Virus record (IMG/VR): IMGVR_UViG_3300028887_000077
Coordinates: 32,001-96,000 of that record
Length of the DNA stretch: 64,000 nt
Origin: a virus
Lineage: Duplodnaviria > Caudoviricetes
Direction: 5' to 3' (one strand)
Both the position numbers and the translations under genes were made by a program. Position 1 is the stretch's first letter, and each line of letters opens with the position of its first letter. Under the pieces are notes generated by a model. It was not told where the DNA came from, ran no database searches, and saw only the letters and a list, made by a program, of their open reading frames with translations. Below, piece by piece: positions 16,451 to 39,396 of the stretch.

Positions 16451-17887
16451 ATGGGCCGAAAAAACAAAAACAATAAAATTCGGATTTTATTTTGCGGAGA
16501 AAACGCCCATGACGTTACCGGATCATGCACCTACATCGAAACACCGTATCATAAAATTCTGTTAGAGCTCGGAATGTGGCAGACGTGCGGGAGTAAACTC
16601 GACGCATGGAAAGTTAATTCGAGGAAGTTCGCATTCAAGGCGAAGGACGTCGAGTACATCTTTGTGCCACATTTGCATCTCGACCACGCCGGATTGATCC
16701 CTCTCGCGGTTGCGAGGGGGTTCTCCGGACAGATCGTAATGCCCCACAAATCGAAAGCGATTGCCGAGATTTTGTGGAAAGACAGCACGCACATCATTGA
16801 GTGTGACGCAGAAGAACTATCAAGAAAACTCGGAAGAGAATATCTTCCTTATTATACAGGTACAGATGTTGAAGCATCTTTGAATAAGGTGCGTGAATAT
16901 GCGCCCGGCGAAATTATCGAAGTTGACGAATATCTCAAGTTTCGTTTCGTTCCGTCTGGGCACATCGTCGGAGCGTGTCAGTTAGAGCTTTGGCTCTCTG
17001 ACGGAGTTGTTACGAAAAAGATCCTCTATACGTCGGATCTTGGCAACACACACATCCAAAAGGATTATGTTTATCCGTTTGAGCCGGTGGAGTCGGCTAA
17101 TATTGTTATTGGAGAAAGTACATACAGCGGCGAAGAACGGATCGCAACTGATAAGACGCGCAAGAAGGATATCGAAAAACTCGTATCGTCAATCACTCAA
17201 ACGTGTATCGACGAAAGGGGGCGGGTGCTAATCCCTAGTTTCGCTATCGATAGAACTCAAACGATTATGACAGTGTTATACGACTGCTTTCATAACGACA
17301 AGACATTTAATATTCCTATCTTAATTGATAGTCCGATGGCTCGGTCTGTCTGCGAGGCATATTCAAAAGTTTTGTCCGGAAACGAACTGAGAAAGTGGAA
17401 TAGGGTGAAGTCTTGGGACCGGTTCGTATATGTTGGCGACTATCTCGACAGTAAACATTTCCGCGAAGAAGTACACAGCCCGTGTGTTGTCATAGCGTCG
17501 TCGGGCTTCCTCGTTGGCGGTCGCGCGGTAGCGTGGTGTTCGGAAATGTTGCCGAATAAGAACGACCGTATCATTACGGTTGGGTATGCTCCGCCCGGAT
17601 CGATCGCGTATACGATTAAGAACGAAACGCAGAAGACGATTACGATCGCCGGCAGAAAAAGAAGTAACAAGTGTCAAATTACTAACTTGACCAGCTTTTC
17701 TTCTCATATGCAGCGAGACTCCCTTCTAGACTATTACTCTTCTATTTCTTGCGAGAAGATTTATCTCGTTCATGGAGAGATGGATAAGAAAATAGCGTTC
17801 TCTTCTGAGCTTGAAAATAAAATCTCGGAGAAGAATAAGACCACAAGAGTTGTGTGTGTAAATAAAGGAACAGAAATAATTTTATAA
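16451..17887 (+). CDS. Metallo-beta-lactamase/beta-CASP ribonuclease (YSH1-like)
   Basis: VTGSC, HLHLDH, SGHIVG, YTSDLG, GESTY, IPSFAIDRTQ, FSSH, LVHGE. Confidence 0.9.
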   Translation: MGRKNKNNKIRILFCGENAHDVTGSCTYIETPYHKILLELGMWQTCGSKLDAWKVNSRKFAFKAKDVEYIFVPHLHLDHAGLIPLAVARGFSGQIVMPHKSKAIAEILWKDSTHIIECDAEELSRKLGREYLPYYTGTDVEASLNKVREYAPGEIIEVDEYLKFRFVPSGHIVGACQLELWLSDGVVTKKILYTSDLGNTHIQKDYVYPFEPVESANIVIGESTYSGEERIATDKTRKKDIEKLVSSITQTCIDERGRVLIPSFAIDRTQTIMTVLYDCFHNDKTFNIPILIDSPMARSVCEAYSKVLSGNELRKWNRVKSWDRFVYVGDYLDSKHFREEVHSPCVVIASSGFLVGGRAVAWCSEMLPNKNDRIITVGYAPPGSIAYTIKNETQKTITIAGRKRSNKCQITNLTSFSSHMQRDSLLDYYSSISCEKIYLVHGEMDKKIAFSSELENKISEKNKTTRVVCVNKGTEIIL

Positions 17888-19071: not shown

Positions 19072-19158
19072 GGGGAGATGGCAGAGAGGCTGAATGCGAC
19101 GGTTTGCTAAACCGTTGGCCCTGTGGGCCCGAAGGTTCGAATCCTTCTCTTCCCGCCA
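19072..19158 (+). tRNA. tRNA-Ser(GCU)
   Basis: GGGGAGA/TCTTCCC acceptor, TTGCTAA loop, long variable arm, GCCA end. Confidence 0.92.
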
Positions 19159-19180: not shown

Positions 19181-19693
19181 ATGAAAGAAAAAAAATATTT
19201 TGTAATTATTGACATGCAAAACGACTTTGTAACCGGCGCGTTAAAGAACGACGACGCTGTCGGCGTTGCAGAAAAGATCGTTTACTATTATCAGCACAAT
19301 CGGTTTGATCGTGTCGTATTTACAATGGACACCCACAATCAAGATTATCTCAATACTCTCGAGGGCAAAAACCTGCCGGTTCCACATTGCATCAAAGGAA
19401 CAAAGGGATGGGAGATTGTTGATGAACTGTTGTTTTTAACGAAGCAATCTACGGTTGTTGAAAAAACAACATTCGGCAGCCTTTCGTGGAAAAAAATTAT
19501 TAAAGATCCGACAGAAATCACTATCTGTGGTCTGGTGTCTGATATTTGTGTTTGTAGCAACGCTTTGATTTTGCGCGCTATGTTCCCAAACACAAAAATT
19601 AAGGTTGTTTCTAATCTGTGTGCGGGATTAACCAAAGAAAAACACAACGCCGCTATGAGCGTAATGGAATCTTGCCAGATTGAGGTAGAATAA
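19181..19693 (+). CDS. pncA: Nicotinamidase (isochorismatase-family cysteine hydrolase)
   Basis: IDMQNDF, DTH, PHC..GT.GW, EKTTFGS, GLVSDICV; NAD-gene context. Confidence 0.8.
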   Translation: MKEKKYFVIIDMQNDFVTGALKNDDAVGVAEKIVYYYQHNRFDRVVFTMDTHNQDYLNTLEGKNLPVPHCIKGTKGWEIVDELLFLTKQSTVVEKTTFGSLSWKKIIKDPTEITICGLVSDICVCSNALILRAMFPNTKIKVVSNLCAGLTKEKHNAAMSVMESCQIEVE

Positions 19694-20556
19694 TGATTAA
19701 AGTAAACGGTCATAAGGTAGAGCTTGAAACGTTCGGTGACAATACTCTGAAGTGCAAGACGATCGAGCCTGGCTGGCTCGTATCGGACAATCTCGGAATC
19801 AAAGTCGGAGACTGTGCAACGCTTACATGGGCATATGATAACGATGCCGAACTATTTGCAGTTTGCTGCCTTGCAAAAGAGCTTCACGAGGAGACTAATA
19901 CCGTATATCTCGAACTGCCCTACATTCCGCATGCAAGGCAAGACAGAAAAGTCAGTGGACGACTCTTTACTTTGAAGGTTTTTGCAGAGATCATCAATTC
20001 TCTCAATTTCAAACGAGTATATGTACTCGATCCACACTCTGATGTCAGTACTGCTCTTATCGATCGTGTTAGGGTCAGGGACTATGAGTTCTTCACTCCG
20101 TCGAAAGTCGATAATCTTGATGCGGTCATGTTTCCAGATACCGGCGCGGCAAAGAAGTACAGCACTACTATGGACGTCGGCAATTTTCCTGTTATTATCG
20201 GCAACAAACATCGTAATGCGGAAGGCCGAGTCGAGTCCTATGAGCTTATGAACTTCCCAGAAGGCGCAAAAACGGTCGCCATTATCGACGATATTTGCTC
20301 TTACGCAGGCACACATGTGGCAGCAGCAAAAGCCCTTAAAGAAAAGGGTGTTGAAAAGGTCATCCTTGTAATTTCACATTGTGAATATAATATTGCAAAA
20401 GGGGCAGCATTTGAATATATAGATGTAGTATATACTACAGATAGTATTTTGGATTTAAATAATACAGAAATTGATCCTGCCGTATTAACAAAATTGCAGG
20501 AAGCAGAAAAAACAGGTAAGCTTGTGATAACACATCATTTTAGACAGGACTACTAA
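19693..20556 (+). CDS. Prs-like pyrophosphokinase (Adps-type)
   Basis: PYIPHARQDR, FTLKVFAEIINSL, DPHSDV, FPDTGA, IIDDICSYAGT. Confidence 0.85.
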   Translation: MIKVNGHKVELETFGDNTLKCKTIEPGWLVSDNLGIKVGDCATLTWAYDNDAELFAVCCLAKELHEETNTVYLELPYIPHARQDRKVSGRLFTLKVFAEIINSLNFKRVYVLDPHSDVSTALIDRVRVRDYEFFTPSKVDNLDAVMFPDTGAAKKYSTTMDVGNFPVIIGNKHRNAEGRVESYELMNFPEGAKTVAIIDDICSYAGTHVAAAKALKEKGVEKVILVISHCEYNIAKGAAFEYIDVVYTTDSILDLNNTEIDPAVLTKLQEAEKTGKLVITHHFRQDY

Positions 20557-20649
20557 GTTATAACTATTATATCGTTTTTGATGACATTTGTAATAGTGGG
20601 ATAATATGACTGCTAAATTATATGAAAGTAAAATTGGAGGTAATTTGGC

Positions 20650-21750
20650 ATGATTAGTTGCTTACTTTGTTTAAATGAATTTAAAAATGAGCAGGTATTA
20701 ACAAAGCATTTACAAAAAGTACACAGTATTTCAAGAAAAGAATATGCAGATCAGTGGCTTAAATTGGACCATATTTGTCCATTTTGTGGACAAGACCGCG
20801 CATTTAAGCACATTAAATATGATAGAACTTGCGGATCAAACTCTTGTATAGCAGAATTAAAACGACAAGTCTATTTAGAACGCTATGGAGTGATAAATCC
20901 GGGCCAGCGACAGATCCAAAGAGAACTAAATAAACATAATTTTGATGACCCAGAGAAATTAAGGGCAAGAAACAACAAAACTAAACAAACCTCGCTAGTA
21001 AAGTATAGTACCGAGAGCCCTAATCAAGCAAAAGAAGTACAAGATAAATCTAAGCAGACATTACTGACTAAATATGGCGTAGCCTTTGCCACACAGCTAC
21101 CTCAATGTAAAACAGCCGGGCATACACAAGGGGCTCAAGCAAAGCGGGCCGAAACTCTAAAACAGAATAACTTAGAAAAATATGGGGCAGCAAATGTTTT
21201 TCAATTAGAGGCAATAAAAATAAAGTCTAAGAAAACTAAATTTAGTCGGTATGGTAACGAGTACTGGACTAATCCAGAAAAAGCTACACAGACTTGTCTA
21301 TTACACTTTGGTGTTCGCAGATTTGCTCAGTCGGAACTTGCCAAAAAACAACATCATAGAGTAATAAGATACAACAATTTAGTATTTGATAGCAAATTAG
21401 AATTGGCTTTTTATTTGTTTTGTGTTGAACATCAACTTAATGTACAGATTAAGCCTGCCAGACTGCCGTTTTTTGTAGATAATAAATTGTACTATTATTT
21501 TCCAGATTTCAGTATTAATAACATTTACTATGAGTGTAAAGGTAAACATTTATTAAAATATTCAGAAACTGGTACAATTATAGGATTATCTAATCCCTAT
21601 ACATCAAAAAAGACAGAGCAAGAGAAATTAACAATACAACATCATTTAGATGCCAAGTATGCTTGTATGCTAGAAAATAACATACAAATTATTACAGGTG
21701 AAGAAGATTTCTATAAAGTTTTAAACAATTCAGAAAATAATAAGAGGTAA
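20650..21750 (+). mobile_element. Free-standing homing endonuclease-like gene (AT-rich)
   Basis: N-terminal C2H2/Cys Zn motifs, repeated T.L.KYG units, C-terminal DS.LE..F...YFPDF...YECKG (PD-(D/E)XK); visibly AT-richer than its neighbours. Confidence 0.75.
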
Positions 21751-21754
21751 AAGT

Positions 21755-23278
21755 ATGTTTAAACTCAATCCGTTACTCGAAAGTGATTACTACAAGCAAG
21801 TCCATTGGGGCCAGTATCCGAAAAACGTGACCAAAGTCGTTTCGTACTGGGTTCCTCGCGGGACGCGTATTCCAGGCTGGAATTACGCGGTCATGTTCGG
21901 TCTTCAGGGGTTCATCAAGGAATTTTTAATCGAGGATTTCAATCAGTATTTCTTTGATCGGAATATCGACGAAGTTCTTGACGAGTACCACCACATCCTC
22001 GACAATACTCTCGGAGAAAAACTCGCCGGGATTGACCGTATCGAAGATCTCTGGCATCTCGGATATCTGCCTATCGAGATCAAGGCGCTTCCGGAGGGAA
22101 CTAAGGTACCCCTTAAGGTTCCTATGTTCGAAATCTCCAACACTCACCCGCGGTTTGCGTGGCTTACGAACGCTCTTGAAAGCGTGATTTCTTGTGAGAT
22201 GTGGCACGCAATGCTTTCCGCAAACGTCGGCGTGGCGTATCGTGAGATTGTTGACAAGTATTACGATGAAACTTGCGACGACGTGATTCCACACAGACGC
22301 GCTCTTGGCGATTTTGCGATGCGCGGGCAGGAGTCGTACAGAAGCGCAACGAAATCTTCTGCCGCATGGCTTCTCTCTTTCGTGAATACCGCAACGGTTC
22401 CGGCCATTCCGTATCTCGAGAAATACTACAACTGCGACTGCGTGAAAGAAGAGGTTGGCTTCGGCGCTCCTTCGACTGAACACAGCGTCATGTGCTCCAA
22501 CTTCGCAGTCGACGGTGACGAGATCACGATGGTTAAGCGTCTACTTACCGAGATCTATCCGCACAACACTTTCACGATGGTATCCGACAGTTACGACTAC
22601 TGGAACCTTGTCGAAAATATTATCCCGCAGTGCAAGAAGGAAATTCTCGAACACGACGGTATCTTCATGGTCCGCGGCGACTCCGGCGATCCGGTTGAGG
22701 TCGTCACTAAGACCGTTTTCAAACTCTGGGACATTTTCGGCGGGACGGTAAACTCGAAGGGCTATAAGGTCCTCGATAAGCACGTGAAAGCGATCTACGG
22801 CGACTCTATCACGATGAGGCGCGCCAAAAATATCTACGAGATTCTGAAAAACGCCGGGTTCGCAGCTTCGAACGTGAGCCTTGGCGTCGGGTCCTTCTCG
22901 ATGCAGTGCTATGAGTCTGCAAGTGAAGACGGTACGGTTAAACTGAGTCCGTTCACCCGCGACACCCTGAACTTTGCGATCAAAGCAACTTACTGCGAGA
23001 CGTCCGATGGCAAGCAGATTCCGATCTTCAAGAATCCGAAAGAAATGGCATTCAAGAAGTCGAACAAAGGTTGTATCGCTGTCTACTACGGCGAGAATAA
23101 GCTCGACGAGGCTGGAAACGTTGTCTTCGCAGATTTTCTTGCGATCGACGGTAGAACGTTCGAAGACGTCAGCAACGATCCGAACAATAAGCTTCAGCCC
23201 GTTTTCAAAGACGGCAAGATGCTCAAGGAGTACAGCCTGAAAGAGATCAGAGACAGACTGTGGGATGGTAGGTTCTGA
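21755..23278 (+). CDS. nadV: NAMPT/NadV-family phosphoribosyltransferase (Namat-like; probably nicotinate-accepting)
   Basis: DYYKQVH, FGLQ, DFAMRG, STEHSVM, VSDSYD, RGDSGDP, IYGDSIT, TRDT..FAIKAT, KKSNKG. Confidence 0.9.
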   Translation: MFKLNPLLESDYYKQVHWGQYPKNVTKVVSYWVPRGTRIPGWNYAVMFGLQGFIKEFLIEDFNQYFFDRNIDEVLDEYHHILDNTLGEKLAGIDRIEDLWHLGYLPIEIKALPEGTKVPLKVPMFEISNTHPRFAWLTNALESVISCEMWHAMLSANVGVAYREIVDKYYDETCDDVIPHRRALGDFAMRGQESYRSATKSSAAWLLSFVNTATVPAIPYLEKYYNCDCVKEEVGFGAPSTEHSVMCSNFAVDGDEITMVKRLLTEIYPHNTFTMVSDSYDYWNLVENIIPQCKKEILEHDGIFMVRGDSGDPVEVVTKTVFKLWDIFGGTVNSKGYKVLDKHVKAIYGDSITMRRAKNIYEILKNAGFAASNVSLGVGSFSMQCYESASEDGTVKLSPFTRDTLNFAIKATYCETSDGKQIPIFKNPKEMAFKKSNKGCIAVYYGENKLDEAGNVVFADFLAIDGRTFEDVSNDPNNKLQPVFKDGKMLKEYSLKEIRDRLWDGRF

Positions 23279-23760
23279 TGGTACAATATTTTAAAGGAGA
23301 TCTTCTTGAAAGCGGCTGTGACGTAATCTGTCATCAGACTAATTGCGTCGGGGCTATGGGCAGTGGAATCGCAAGACAGATTCGCGAGACTTATCCCGAA
23401 ACCTACGAAGCTCTCAGAGAGCGGTTTGAAAACGGTCTTGCAAAACTCGGCGAGTGCGATTTCGTGGAGCTCAAAAGCAAAGACCCTTACGGTCCTGCGA
23501 TCACCAACAATTACGTAGTCAACTGTTACAGCCAGTTTGACTGCTGGCCGCGCGGGGTGCGGCATACCGATTACGACGCGTTCAGAGAGTGCTGCAAGAA
23601 GATCAAAGAACGCTTCGATGGTAAAAACTTCCGGATCGGTTTTCCTTATAAAATCGGTTCCGCTCTCGGGGGCGGAGACTGGGAAGTTATGAAACAAATC
23701 ATTGAAGAAGAATTTAAAGATAACAACTGGAGGGTTGAAGTATGGCAACTAAACTGTTAA
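23278..23760 (+). CDS. Macrodomain protein (ADP-ribose binding/hydrolase)
   Basis: GDLL, HQTNCVGAMGSGIA, FPYKIGSALGGGDW. Confidence 0.88.
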   Translation: MVQYFKGDLLESGCDVICHQTNCVGAMGSGIARQIRETYPETYEALRERFENGLAKLGECDFVELKSKDPYGPAITNNYVVNCYSQFDCWPRGVRHTDYDAFRECCKKIKERFDGKNFRIGFPYKIGSALGGGDWEVMKQIIEEEFKDNNWRVEVWQLNC

Positions 23761-24533
23761 GAGAGGTTTTGGCGTGGCTTGAGGACTACAAGAAGCACGC
23801 AGGATGCAAAGGTGTGGTCCTCGGAATTTCTGGCGGAAAAGACAGCACCACGGTCGCGATGTTGGCGACGAAGGTCTGGGGCAGGGACGTTGTTGGCGTT
23901 CTTATGCCCAACGGCGTTCAGGCTGATATTGAGGATTCTCGTGCGGTTTGTGATTGTCTTGAGCTCAGGAATATTACCGTAAATATTGGTAATGCGTTCG
24001 GCAAGCTCTGCGATGACGTTAATCGCGGTCTTGAATCCTTCGGAGCGGAAGTTACCCCTAAGACCAAAACCAACATTCCGCCTCGTCTCAGGATGACTAC
24101 CCTGTACACCGTCGCGCAGTCTCTCGGCTATCGCGTGATCGGCACCGGCAACGCAAGCGAAGGCTACGTAGGCTGGACTACCAAGTTCGGCGACAGCGCG
24201 TGCGACCTGAATCCGCTCGGCAATCTGACCTGTTCTGAGGTCGTTGCTCTCGGTTCTGAGCTCGCGGAGGAGTTCGGGCTTCCTCTGAAGTACGTTCAGA
24301 AAATCCCGTCTGACGGTCTGTCCGGTCGTTCCGATGAAGATAACTTCGGCTTTACCTACCGGCAGCTTGACGCCTTTATGGTCGATGGCTGCGACGCAAA
24401 GATAGAAGGAGAACCCATCCCAGAGGAGATCAGAGAAAAGATTGGCGCTATGCACGCTATGTCTGCACACAAAAGAGCTCTCCCCAGAACATTTGAACCG
24501 ACCACAGAGTTTATGCGCCGGTTTAAACGATAA
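23742..24533 (+). CDS. nadE: NH3-dependent NAD+ synthetase
   Basis: GISGGKDST, NIPPRLRM, GTGNASE, TKFGD, PSDGL, DEDNFG, HKR. Confidence 0.92.
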   Translation: MATKLLREVLAWLEDYKKHAGCKGVVLGISGGKDSTTVAMLATKVWGRDVVGVLMPNGVQADIEDSRAVCDCLELRNITVNIGNAFGKLCDDVNRGLESFGAEVTPKTKTNIPPRLRMTTLYTVAQSLGYRVIGTGNASEGYVGWTTKFGDSACDLNPLGNLTCSEVVALGSELAEEFGLPLKYVQKIPSDGLSGRSDEDNFGFTYRQLDAFMVDGCDAKIEGEPIPEEIREKIGAMHAMSAHKRALPRTFEPTTEFMRRFKR

Positions 24534-24543
24534 GGAGTATCAT

Positions 24544-25017
24544 ATGTCGAGAGTTTGTTGGTGTCAGAGGTGTCTCGGGCTAGCCGACGTGAACGACGAT
24601 CAAATATTGACGTCTATTCCGCCGAAGTATTCGTATGACTGTCGTAAGTGCGGATATCACGGATACATCTTATGCTCACAATATATCAATTTAACGTTCG
24701 AAGAGAACAAAGAAAACAAGGAGGTTGAACCTGAAGAAATGAACAAAAACAATATAAATGGTGACACCATGAACATGTATACGCCAACAGTAACGGATAC
24801 CACCGCATATGAAAAATCGTGCCCGCACAGACTTCCGTGCGGTATCTGCCGGTTGACTGATAGGGAATGCTCGAAGATTTTCTGGAACGATCAGTTTATG
24901 TCTACGTGTAATCCGACGATTCCTAATCCGACGGTTTCCAAATGTGATGAAAATTCCACCGGCTATAGCACAGTAACAGCGCAAAACTGTGTTGACGAGA
25001 AAGAAAATAAAAACTAA
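24544..25017 (+). CDS. Hypothetical Cys-rich protein
   Basis: CQRC, LTSIPPKY..CRKC, CPHRLPCG; AAGGAG RBS. Confidence 0.55.
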   Translation: MSRVCWCQRCLGLADVNDDQILTSIPPKYSYDCRKCGYHGYILCSQYINLTFEENKENKEVEPEEMNKNNINGDTMNMYTPTVTDTTAYEKSCPHRLPCGICRLTDRECSKIFWNDQFMSTCNPTIPNPTVSKCDENSTGYSTVTAQNCVDEKENKN

Positions 25018-25053
25018 ATTTTAAAATATTTTAAAGAAGTTGTCAAAAACCAC

Positions 25054-25082
25054 TTGACAACTTCTTTTTAATGTGTTATAAT
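25054..25082 (+). promoter_or_regulatory. Sigma-A/70 promoter with -35 inside a 14-bp inverted repeat
   Basis: TTGACA-17-TATAAT; AAAGAAGTTGTCAA-7-TTGACAACTTCTTT. Confidence 0.85.
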
Positions 25083-25111: not shown

Positions 25112-26347
25112 ATGTTTGAAATTAAAGGATCTATCGGCTCTGCGAAGTGTTACGCAAAAACTGTCGAGCAGGCAGCAATTGATCAGATCAAGAGAATGTG
25201 CGATTACAAGCTCACGGAAGGAAGCGATATCTGCATCATGCCAGACGTTCACGCTGGTGCGGGGTGTACCATCGGAACCACCATGACCATCACCGATAAG
25301 GTGTGTCCAAATATTGTTGGCGTTGATATCGGATGTGGTATGCTTACTATCCGGCTAGACAAAAGGGCAGACGAGCTTGATCTCGCAAAGATCGATGAAG
25401 CGGCCCATTATATTCCGTCCGGAATGAACGTATGGGAAGAATGCGACAACCGGTTTGATCTGAGCGAGCTTCGTTGTTTGAAGAAGCTACATGATGTAGA
25501 TAGGCTCGAAAGATCTCTTGGAACGCTTGGCGGTGGTAATCACTTTATTGAGGTTGACAAAGACAACAACGGTTTTGCCTACCTGGTTATTCATTCCGGA
25601 AGTCGCAACCTTGGTAAACAAGTCGCTGATATCTATCAGAAGATCGCCATCGGCCTCCATGATGGCAAACAAAAGATCGCTGAGGAGAAACGTGAAGCCA
25701 TCCGCTCTCTCAAAGAGGCCGGAAGAGCATCAGAGATTCAGGCGACCATCAAAGAAATCGATCGAAAATATAAAGATTGTGGCATGGATGTCCCGGAAGA
25801 TATTTGTTGGCTTTACGGTAAGGACATGGAGGACTATCTGCATGATCTGAAGATTTGTCAGGATTTTGCCGTCAAGAATAGAAAGAAAATGGCAAACATT
25901 ATTCTTGAGAAATGTGGGCTTGAAGCAAACACGTTTTTTCATACTATCCATAACTACATATCTCTTGACGAAATGATTCTTCGTAAAGGCGCTATTTCGG
26001 CGCGCGCTGGAGAGGTCGTTTTGATTCCGATCAATATGCGCGACGGATCAGTGATTGCAGTCGGAAAGGGTAACCCAGAGTGGAACTGCTCTGCTCCGCA
26101 CGGAGCCGGTCGGCTAATGTCTCGCGCTGAAGCAAAGAGAACCCTAAATATCGAAGATTATAAAAACTCTATGAATGGTATCTACACTACGTCGGTAAAC
26201 GAAGGGACTATCGACGAGGCCCCGATGGTTTATAAGCCGATTGAGGAAATCGTCGAGGCAATTAAAGACACCGTCGATATCGTCGGTATCATCAAGCCGA
26301 TTTACAACTTTAAGGCTGCGGAAGACGAGCCGATTTGGAGGAAATAA
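25112..26347 (+). CDS. rtcB: RtcB RNA 3'-phosphate/5'-OH ligase
   Basis: MPDVHAG, VGVDIGCG, GTLGGGNHF, HSGSR, HNY, RKGA, HGAGR, DEAPMVYK. Confidence 0.95.
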   Translation: MFEIKGSIGSAKCYAKTVEQAAIDQIKRMCDYKLTEGSDICIMPDVHAGAGCTIGTTMTITDKVCPNIVGVDIGCGMLTIRLDKRADELDLAKIDEAAHYIPSGMNVWEECDNRFDLSELRCLKKLHDVDRLERSLGTLGGGNHFIEVDKDNNGFAYLVIHSGSRNLGKQVADIYQKIAIGLHDGKQKIAEEKREAIRSLKEAGRASEIQATIKEIDRKYKDCGMDVPEDICWLYGKDMEDYLHDLKICQDFAVKNRKKMANIILEKCGLEANTFFHTIHNYISLDEMILRKGAISARAGEVVLIPINMRDGSVIAVGKGNPEWNCSAPHGAGRLMSRAEAKRTLNIEDYKNSMNGIYTTSVNEGTIDEAPMVYKPIEEIVEAIKDTVDIVGIIKPIYNFKAAEDEPIWRK

Positions 26348-38801: not shown

Positions 38802-38892
38802 GCGGAACGTAGCTCAGCGGCAGAGCTTCGCTGTAAAAAAGGGGTAAAGCGCGAAACATCCTTGGTCGCCGGTTCGAGTCCGGCCGCTCCGC
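38802..38892 (+). ncRNA. tRNA-like RNA with non-canonical anticodon arm
   Basis: Normal D arm (GCTC/GAGC) and T arm (GCCGG TTCGAGT CCGGC), GCGGAACG/CGCTCCGC acceptor, about 40-nt central region, no CCA. Confidence 0.65.
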
Positions 38893-39396
38893 ACTAGGGC
38901 AAAGTTGTGAGCCCAGTCAGAAAATCAACGGGTGTGCACCAACGAGTTGCATGGTCTACTCGGACCCATGCGAGTACATTTCCATCGTCTAATTGGAGTA
39001 GTTAAAATGCCCGACGACAAGGGAATTAGGCAATTTGCAAGCAGATGCCATGCTGTCCCTGGCATTAGCTTGCCTTCGGCGATGGTAACCAGTCCACCAG
39101 ACCGGAGAAGTGTGACACAGACAAAGGGAACATAGAAGTGTGTCGTCCTACAGAGCGGTGATAACACTAGTCCGCTCACTATAATTAAACACGGAGGGTT
39201 CACAAAGGCAATGGAACAAATGAAGGACAAATTCGACTCAATCATTGACTGCCTGAAAAAGGGCATTCAACCGACGATATGCAATCAGCCAACAGTTGAA
39301 AAATCAGAAACTTGCCAATGTCTTGAAGGTTTAAGGTTGATCAAGTAACACAATCGAACGAAGACAAGGGTTTTGTAAAGAGACAGGATCTTTTAT

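Follow-up and report, generated by a model that had tools for sequence, protein, structure and literature searches.

Gene content of the cassette

We analyzed a stretch of 64,000 nt, hereafter the window, that corresponds to bases 32001-96000 of the IMG/VR record IMGVR_UViG_3300028887_000077, a complete virus of 150,027 bp with direct terminal repeats. The subject of this work is a cassette at window positions 19181-24533, part of which resembles NARP1, the phage pathway to nicotinamide adenine dinucleotide (NAD+) formed by the enzymes Adps and Namat (10.1101/2024.02.11.579819). It consists of six co-oriented open reading frames (ORFs) on the + strand, located directly after a replication module that encodes a DnaB-like helicase, a primase, a DNA polymerase, an exonuclease, a RecD-like helicase, a Clp-like protease, and a beta-CASP nuclease. 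In order, the six ORFs specify a PncA-like nicotinamidase, an Adps-like kinase, a homing endonuclease, a Namat-like transferase, a macrodomain protein, and NadE. A first-pass annotation, made from the letters of the window alone, had listed five of these genes, all of which are indeed open on the + strand at the positions given below, and the translational coupling that it had noted is evident as overlaps of 1 nt (PncA/Adps), 1 nt (Namat/macrodomain), and 19 nt (macrodomain/NadE). The list had nonetheless overlooked a sixth ORF, that of the homing endonuclease.

The kinase gene (19693-20556, 287 aa) encodes a putative ADP-ribose diphosphokinase and matches PHROG 619, 'ribose-phosphate pyrophosphokinase' (E 8.6e-61). 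Its product aligns over the full length with SPbetaL1 Adps (35% identity, 133 bits) and scores just 53 bits against the phosphoribosyl pyrophosphate (PRPP) synthetase (PRPS) of B. subtilis. The TIGR01251 score of 83.9 bits is under the cut-off of 113, as are those of the SPbetaL1 (106) and ICP1 (98.3) Adps, and the protein falls far below the equivalog cut-off of every canonical PRPP synthetase model. The Adps references were the genes of ICP1 and SPbetaL1 as deposited in GenBank, the activity of both enzymes being taken from the literature; a PDB sequence search with the kinase yielded no chain named Adps among its returns. All seven residues named as ADP-ribose (ADPR)-contacting or catalytic in ICP1 Adps (F18, R87, H121, D161, K185, D212, and D213; PMC13586617) are conserved, which is no proof of ADPR as substrate because most of them are common to PRPS. 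On these comparisons the kinase appears to group with validated Adps and not with PRPS, and ADPR is its predicted substrate.

The PncA-like protein (19181-19693, 170 aa; Pfam Isochorismatase, E 6.4e-22) scores far under the NCBIfam nicotinamidase cut-off (27.9 vs 174 bits). Among solved structures it is closest to the Pyrococcus horikoshii pyrazinamidase/nicotinamidase 1ILW, and the alignment of both retains what we take to be the catalytic Asp-Lys-Cys triad and the D-x-H...H (Asp-His-His) metal site. At the other end of the cassette (23742-24533, 263 aa), NadE is of the NH3-dependent type, with an NAD_synthase domain at residues 7-248 (E 2.3e-50), a TIGR00552 score above the cut-off (178 vs 63.65 bits), and no glutaminase (CN_hydrolase) domain. 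NadE can act as a nicotinamide mononucleotide (NMN) synthetase in Francisella, converting nicotinic acid mononucleotide (NaMN) to NMN; we rejected this activity here on parsimony, since it needs an NMNAT that the phage does not have and would render deamidation pointless.

Directly 3' of the Namat-like gene lies that of the macrodomain protein (23278-23760, 160 aa), which matches PHROG 335, 'phosphatase' (E 3.4e-44), and stays marginally under the Pfam Macro cut-off (21.5 vs 22 bits). Its PDB relatives are 2AFC/2FG1, the DarG macrodomain 5M31 and, as a partial match, yeast Poa1p 6LFT (E 1.4e-4), and it shares only ~27% identity with a macrodomain that a Vibrio harveyi phage encodes next to its Prs-like gene. 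According to the available portion of a recent preprint (10.64898/2026.01.28.702374), 15% of NARP1 operons contain a macrodomain gene, that of Vibrio phage Gary codes for an ADPR-1''-phosphate phosphatase (Adpp), genes within two positions of the NARP1 core are counted as candidate Adpp, a range in which the window gene falls, and the Adps-Adpp-Namat arrangement, 'NARP1-AP', defeats aRES defence. By analogy, the window macrodomain is most likely an Adpp-like ADPR-1''-phosphate phosphatase. The first-pass annotation had it freeing ADPR from ADP-ribosylated targets, a role that we abandon, the macrodomains of NARP1 operons being, in that portion of the preprint, phosphatases that counter aRES. 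A DarG-type antitoxin is considered less likely (NCBIfam 54 bits vs a cut-off of 250), the fixed site in an NAD cassette favoring Adpp. The Adps, Namat, and macrodomain part of the cluster is thus of an already known kind, because NARP1-AP is published.

The ORF between the Adps-like and Namat-like genes (20650-21750, 366 aa) encodes a free-standing homing endonuclease (DUF7487, E 5.2e-14; PHROG 3339, E 1.9e-16; PHROG 12131). It sits in the stretch of lowest GC content in the window (0.363 at 20001-22000), and of the 39 closest loci, L001 alone carries an endonuclease at the same site (58% identity). A selfish insertion that separates the two genes is the best explanation.

Pocket type of the transferase and its covariation with PncA and NadE

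The Namat-like transferase (21755-23278, 507 aa) matches PHROG 448 (E 2.5e-159) and, in Pfam, NAPRTase and NAMPT_N (PF18127), but not the NAPRTase_N domain of PncB-type NAPRT (PF17767). Its best PDB match is SPbetaL1 Namat 9W5X (379.7 bits; 9W5X and 9W5W are the structures of PMC12774641), and NAMPT chains reach at most 180.5 bits; chain 9KE8, deposited as 'nicotinamide phosphoribosyltransferase', scores 301 bits. The best NCBIfam model is NF006629, 'nicotinate phosphoribosyltransferase' (448.6 bits vs a cut-off of 405). In SPbetaL1 Namat, nicotinamide is contacted by Phe189, Tyr15', Asp215, which hydrogen-bonds the amide, Ala242, and Arg306, and the D215A substitution lowers NAD+ formation from nicotinamide by 8.1-fold (PMC12774641). 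In human NAMPT the amide is likewise bound by the equivalent residue, Asp219, and Ser occupies this position in human NAPRT (PMC4442680, available portion). The window transferase carries Ala213 at the site of Asp215 and Ser at that of Ala242, and the amide-binding Asp is thus gone; we refer to this as the Ala/Ser-215 ('N') type. Asp13, Tyr15, Arg40, Phe189, Arg192, Arg306, Asp308, Gly360, Asp361, Gly390, Ser391, Phe392, and Thr-Arg-Asp 398-400 are all kept, and an alignment of seven sequences revealed the His of the T-E-H-S-V motif and the rest of the catalytic core to be invariant.

Recognition of the adenine moiety was assessed with the published selectivity-clamp consensus, GS-X-phi-X-phi-X-phi-TRD with aromatic X, plus the stacking Arg40 of the clamp loop. 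The clamp helix reads GSFTYQYNTRD in SPbetaL1 and GSFSMQC, 14 inserted residues, and PFTRD in the window protein, which consequently loses Tyr396. The window protein has Arg40, Phe392, and T-R-D, with Met as the second X and a Phe immediately preceding TRD. A position scan over SPbetaL1 Namat showed that 215 and 242 split Asp-type from N-type proteins best, followed by 187, 240, 213, 239, and 184, which adjoin them in sequence. Kept in both types are R192, R306, D308, G360, D361, G390, S391, F/Y392, T398, R399, D400, and R/K40; the published ribose, phosphate, and AMP contacts are all conserved across both, and Tyr396 is lost only in a clade with a long clamp.

We then sampled loci around relatives of the window transferase and of SPbetaL1 Namat in IMG/VR contigs, GTDB genomes, metagenomes, four named phage records, and four genome stretches, and scanned their stop-to-stop ORFs with hidden Markov models (HMMs) built from the cassette proteins. 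A Namat-family gene was present in 249 loci, 244 of which could be typed at position 215; two were too short to type, and three are truncated at this position but have a long clamp and NadE. PncA-like and NadE genes were found in 78 and 83, respectively, of the 89 loci with Ala, Ser, or Val at position 215, whereas neither occurred in any of the 155 loci with Asp or Glu. The survey suggested in the first-pass annotation yielded a marked co-occurrence of the N-type pocket with PncA and NadE. Adps-like genes were common to both groups (82 of 89 and 141 of 155), and macrodomain genes were found in 45 and 21 loci. Requiring flanks of at least 3 kb on each side left 74 N-type loci (71 with PncA-like, 71 with NadE, 73 with Adps-like, and 42 with macrodomain genes) and 110 Asp/Glu-type loci (0, 0, 107, and 15), and further dereplication at 90% left 36 (35, 34, 35, and 13) and 84 (0, 0, 83, and 11). 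N-type loci without PncA or NadE are mostly contig ends; the full-flank exceptions are L003 and L005, with no NadE within 6 kb, L091, L092, and L229, with no PncA-like gene, and L115, with neither Adps nor NadE. With 71 PncA-like, 73 Adps-like, and 71 NadE genes in 74 full-flank loci, the arrangement of the cassette is not due to chance. The association is kept down to ~44% identity and across phages and chromosomes, despite changes in gene order such as the downstream position of PncA in L041 and L080-L083.

Residues 215/242 are Asp/Ala in 91, Ala/Ser in 32, and Ser/Ser in 19 of the 150 best cluster representatives at 50% identity, the remaining 8 being other or incomplete. A midpoint-rooted FastTree phylogeny (LG + gamma, no NAMPT outgroup) was computed from 203 of 270 sequences, after removal of 52 near-duplicates and of 15 sequences that had under 380 residues aligned. 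It separates a clade of 121 Asp-type tips (support 0.917) from one of 71 Ala/Ser-type tips with a long clamp (support 0.991), and between both fall 11 Ala/Ser proteins whose clamp has the canonical 11 residues. When 50,697 phage records were searched with the cassette DNA, only 3 short matches emerged, and the corresponding protein search returned an unverified human-fecal record, MT835544, at 57% identity, with the others at 45% or less among the matches listed. The clade is almost absent from cultured phages.

The 11 Ala/Ser-type cluster representatives with the canonical clamp keep it in full, GS[YF]xYQYNTRD, and the change at the pyridine site therefore occurs alongside an intact clamp for ADPR pyrophosphate (ADPR-PP). 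These proteins are at most 51% identical to entries of phage databases. Searches for their genomic context found no relative in viral scans with representatives P0151 and P0190, Asp-type loci only in a viral scan with P0144, and no such locus in one metagenome scan with P0137. Among 401 Clostridia genomes, a single case emerged (G052), split over two contig ends: one with NrtR and Adps, and another with Namat (Ala215, Ser242, GSYTYQYNTRD) followed by a NADAR protein. In G052, the changed pocket coexists with a fully preserved adenine clamp and with neighbors linked to ADPR.

Two further features of the family were observed. Many Namat-family genes bear an in-frame insertion of ~80 to >600 aa after about residue 318 in window numbering (for example L026, L027, and L032-L037, and representatives P0122, P0146, P0193, and many others), which may be an intein or an inserted domain; Pfam matched nothing in five of six such insertions and gave a weak LAGLIDADG hint in P0193. 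Moreover, ORFs of ~420-960 aa in the Asp-type metagenome loci L221-L228 match a Nudix/NrtR profile and overlap or adjoin the Namat-family match, and may be Namat-Nudix fusions.

The cassette is also found on bacterial chromosomes. The 24 GTDB loci are contigs of metagenome-assembled genomes (MAGs) from gut or rumen Clostridia (Ruminococcus, Christensenella, Oscillospiraceae, Herbinix, and others, with one bin labelled as a methanogen), and all typeable ones are of Ala/Ser type with the order PncA-Adps-Namat-NadE. An NrtR-like gene adjoins the cassette in 13 of the 24. In L102 and L111, this NrtR (Nudix + NrtR_WHD) is accompanied by the chromosomal neighbors Hsp33, an HflX-type GTPase, an ABC transporter, GH16, and SpoIID, and in L097 the neighbors are phage-like (RNA ligase and integrase). 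The caution in the first-pass annotation that similar genes on clostridial chromosomes could point to a host origin was therefore correct: the cassette is not phage-specific. ADP-ribose is the effector that frees NrtR from DNA, and NrtR controls prs-nadV operons (PMC2330246, available portion). The closest phage relative, L001, a 214-kb complete record, has NrtR (Nudix + NrtR_WHD) directly upstream of PncA (L001:956-1702), which would place a phage cassette under ADP-ribose control. Ten loci without a separate macrodomain gene (L093, L102-L105, L107-L109, L112, and L113) have a NadE ORF with an N-terminal extension of ~150 residues, which Pfam identified as NADAR in all seven tested (L093, L102, L104, L107, L108, L112, and L113).

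The first-pass annotation had reported no recognizable NadD/NMNAT in the window, and this extends to the complete 150,027-bp phage genome, where neither PF01467 nor TIGR00482 found a match. PF01467 was also absent from two complete relatives (the L014 and L029 records) and from the 77%-complete L026. As for the MAGs, five cassette-bearing ones were tested; all five have NadD elsewhere, and three have a canonical PncB with its N-domain, so that the transferase does not merely stand in as the cellular NAPRT of these three.

Predicted route to NAD+ and its alternatives

From the gene identities, residue changes, co-occurrence, and distribution described above, we infer the following enzymatic steps and anti-defence role. 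The PncA-like enzyme would deamidate nicotinamide, released by NAD-cleaving enzymes, to nicotinate, and the Adps-like enzyme would pyrophosphorylate ADP-ribose to ADPR-PP. The Namat-like enzyme, devoid of the amide-binding Asp, would join nicotinate and ADPR-PP into nicotinic acid adenine dinucleotide (NaAD) in one step, with no need for NadD, and NadE would amidate NaAD to NAD+. The macrodomain would feed ADPR into this route from ADPR-1''-phosphate or another ADPR derivative, as would the NADAR partner of other loci. In the phage, the cassette would restore NAD+ after an NAD-depleting defence, as NARP1 does, and in gut Clostridia it would serve as a chromosomal unit for the recycling of ADPR and nicotinamide, often under the ADPR-sensing repressor NrtR. 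We assign a probability of somewhat less than 60% to the cassette being, as its sequence suggests, a four-enzyme nicotinate-based NARP1 with an Adpp-like macrodomain and a homing endonuclease. The path from nicotinamide through nicotinate and NaAD to NAD+ had been put forward in the first-pass annotation and gains strong comparative support from the Ala213/Ser pocket, the covariation, and the preserved donor contacts, its macrodomain step being the part that did not stand. The first-pass annotation also proposed NaAD as an NADase-resistant reserve, a speculative idea that our data favor in neither direction. We also lean toward regarding the undescribed Namat branch, which makes up about a third (55) of the 150 clusters nearest to the window protein at 50% identity, as nicotinate:ADPR-PP transferases that sustain a NadD-independent pathway, used for NrtR/ADPR-controlled NAD recycling in gut and rumen Clostridia and against NAD-depleting immunity by their phages.

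The cassette shares with NARP1 a Prs-like gene beside a NAMPT-like gene, here split by the homing endonuclease only, as well as R40 and F392 of the clamp and every published contact to the ribose, phosphates, and AMP. It differs in the replacement of Asp215 by Ala and of Ala242 by Ser, in the 14-residue insertion of the clamp helix in place of Tyr396, in the PncA-like and NadE genes that set N-type loci apart from Asp-type NARP1 loci, and in the predicted product of the transferase, NaAD instead of NAD+. With NARP1-AP (Osterman et al. 2026) it has in common the macrodomain directly beside the core genes, but the order is Namat-macrodomain-NadE in the window and Adps-macrodomain-Namat in that operon, and activity of the window protein on ADPR-1''-phosphate is assumed. 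Deamidation as the first step, NadE as the last, and, in bacterial copies, an NrtR regulator recall the Preiss-Handler pathway (PncA, PncB, NadD, and NadE), which in Clostridium acetobutylicum is encoded in an NrtR-regulated nrtR-pncA-pncB-nadD-nadE operon (PMC2330246, available portion); the window, however, has an Adps-like kinase and a Namat-like transferase instead of a PncB-family enzyme and NadD. NARP2 (NAMPT + NMNAT) and NARP3 (PnuC + NadR), as described in the available portion of PMC13464706, are likewise phage routes to NAD+, but no NMNAT/NadR-type domain (PF01467) is encoded in this phage; PnuC was not searched for. A NARP3-type pair, PnuC plus a NadR-like gene, does adjoin PncA-Adps-Namat-NadE in two Clostridia MAG contigs (L264:5079-6854 and L265:10461-11536), although NARP3 is unrelated to this cassette.

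The main rival explanation retains the switch to nicotinate but replaces the donor. In such a Preiss-Handler-type salvage, PncA would supply nicotinate, the Prs-like kinase PRPP, the NAMPT-family enzyme NaMN, and host NadD NaAD, leaving the last step to the phage NadE. We consider it unlikely. The name of the best NCBIfam model, NF006629, and the PRPP activity that Namat retains in vitro (PMC12774641) would suit this scheme, but the kinase clusters with validated Adps and not with PRPS. Similarly, the insertion that disrupts the clamp helix in the window subtype speaks for PRPP as donor, yet R40 and F392 of the clamp are preserved, NAMPT being without their Namat consensus (PMC12774641), and some Ala/Ser-type proteins retain the entire adenine clamp. 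Recourse to a host NadD is plausible given the NadD genes in all five cassette-bearing MAGs, and a small cytidylyltransferase-like gene follows NadE in the L001 phage; however, no NadD/NMNAT is present in the complete phage, PF01467 is missing from two of three other complete relatives, and PncB already exists in three of the five MAGs. Finally, the macrodomain, NADAR, and NrtR partners all point to ADPR, which is of no use to a PRPP route.

Very unlikely, in our view, is a standard NARP1-AP in which the Asp-to-Ala change is neutral, the transferase makes NAD+ from nicotinamide and ADPR-PP, and PncA and NadE are add-ons that send surplus nicotinamide to host salvage. Such an operon would explain the presence of Adps, Namat, and macrodomain genes, published together as a three-gene unit (10.64898/2026.01.28.702374, available portion), and the invariant catalytic core with its T-E-H-S-V His. 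Yet the D215A substitution impairs the use of nicotinamide by SPbetaL1 Namat (PMC12774641), a co-expressed nicotinamidase would consume the substrate, and a neutral pocket change poorly fits the strict link to PncA and NadE. The last alternative concerns the role and holds for either chemistry: the cassette may be a host-derived housekeeping module that recycles ADPR and nicotinamide as a general booster, not as counter-defence. This we see as possible, though on the unlikely side. The same gene order in 24 gut/rumen Clostridia MAG loci, the placement of L102 and L111 among ordinary chromosomal genes beside NrtR, and the GC content of 0.50 at 22001-24000, vs ~0.44 in the neighboring stretches, are in line with it. 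On the other hand, the closest characterized systems, NARP1 and NARP1-AP, are demonstrated counter-defences, a macrodomain is specifically useful against aRES-type NAD cleavage (both as far as the available portion of 10.64898/2026.01.28.702374 goes), and the cassette is maintained in many large phages, 54 of the N-type loci coming from IMG/VR contigs. Counter-defence is thus the favored phage role, because of the analogy with NARP1 and NARP1-AP.

Several points weigh against a nicotinate-based NARP1. The evidence is comparative throughout, and the preference for ADPR-PP over PRPP as donor is predicted from sequence; PRPP is usable by SPbetaL1 Namat in vitro (PMC12774641). In the window subtype, a 9-19-residue insertion in the clamp helix replaces the third aromatic residue, Tyr396, and could weaken adenine recognition. 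The Asp/non-Asp split amounts to one change on the tree (Fitch count 1), and the co-occurrence therefore reflects one ancient event that was kept rather than a series of independent events. N-type loci served to build the HMMs for PncA and NadE, so that very divergent genes in Asp-type loci could escape them. As to NadD-like functions, the 137-aa gene right after NadE in the L001 phage is RfaE/TagD-like and coexists with a distant NadR-like gene, and the L030 jumbo phage has a weak NMNAT-like ORF ~17 kb from the cassette. No NAD-depleting defence is linked to the host of the phage. Lastly, the G052 cluster, over its two contig ends, is without PncA or NadE; at other sites, the genome encodes a NadE of the glutamine type and an isochorismatase-family protein. 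G052 speaks neither for nor against the rule in phages, which have no recourse to such housekeeping copies.

The putative nicotinate-type variant occurs widely among gut Clostridia as well as in their phages. Judged by sequence, it appears to be a variant of NARP1 without description in the literature searched, namely the NARP1 preprint (10.1101/2024.02.11.579819), the Namat paper (PMC12774641), the RyR-domain preprint, and library searches, where we did not find NARP1 tied to nicotinamidase, NadE, nicotinate, or NaAD; preprint supplements were outside this scope, and Table S1 of the aRES preprint (10.64898/2026.01.28.702374), which covers NARP1-associated genes, could include PncA or NadE. 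If the prediction is correct, the direct formation of NaAD from nicotinate and ADPR-PP would be a new reaction and a fourth phage way to rebuild NAD+, achieved by retuning the NARP1 scaffold through two pocket residues, and would join phage counter-defence to ADP-ribose-responsive chromosomal recycling in abundant gut anaerobes. The benefit of a deamidated route is a matter of speculation: nicotinate may be the salvage currency of the host, and free nicotinamide short-lived. Asp/Ala vs Ala-or-Ser/Ser at SPbetaL1 positions 215/242 also provides an annotation rule for thousands of genes labelled 'NadV / nicotinate phosphoribosyltransferase'.

Boundaries and neighboring genes

Upstream, the cassette is bounded by a tRNA-Ser(GCT) gene on the + strand (19072-19158; ARAGORN), located directly 5' of PncA. 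At the other side, NadE is followed by a Cys-rich orphan ORF on the + strand (24544-25017, 157 aa) with several C-x-x-C pairs and an ATG preceded by AAGGAG. Pfam, PHROG, and NCBIfam gave no match for this ORF, and none of the fetched loci has a homologue; the ORF is possibly the last gene of the unit, outside the conserved cassette. A hairpin with a 15-bp stem (25033-25082, listed on the + strand and reported on the - strand) marks the downstream boundary and overlaps a promoter-like site, a perfect sigma-70-like TTGACA-17-TATAAT with a TG extension, uncovered by a consensus scan only, that lies ahead of the gene for an RtcB RNA ligase (25112-26347).

Together with the beta-CASP nuclease of the replication module (16451-17887), RtcB suggests that the phage holds an RNA-repair set, and in several relatives (L008-L031) RtcB is placed between the Adps-like and Namat-like genes. 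ARAGORN predicted seven tRNA genes over window positions 18500-48024, among them a tRNA-Phe(AAA) of unusual length (38802-38894, 93 nt) that may be either a false call or a gene with an insert.

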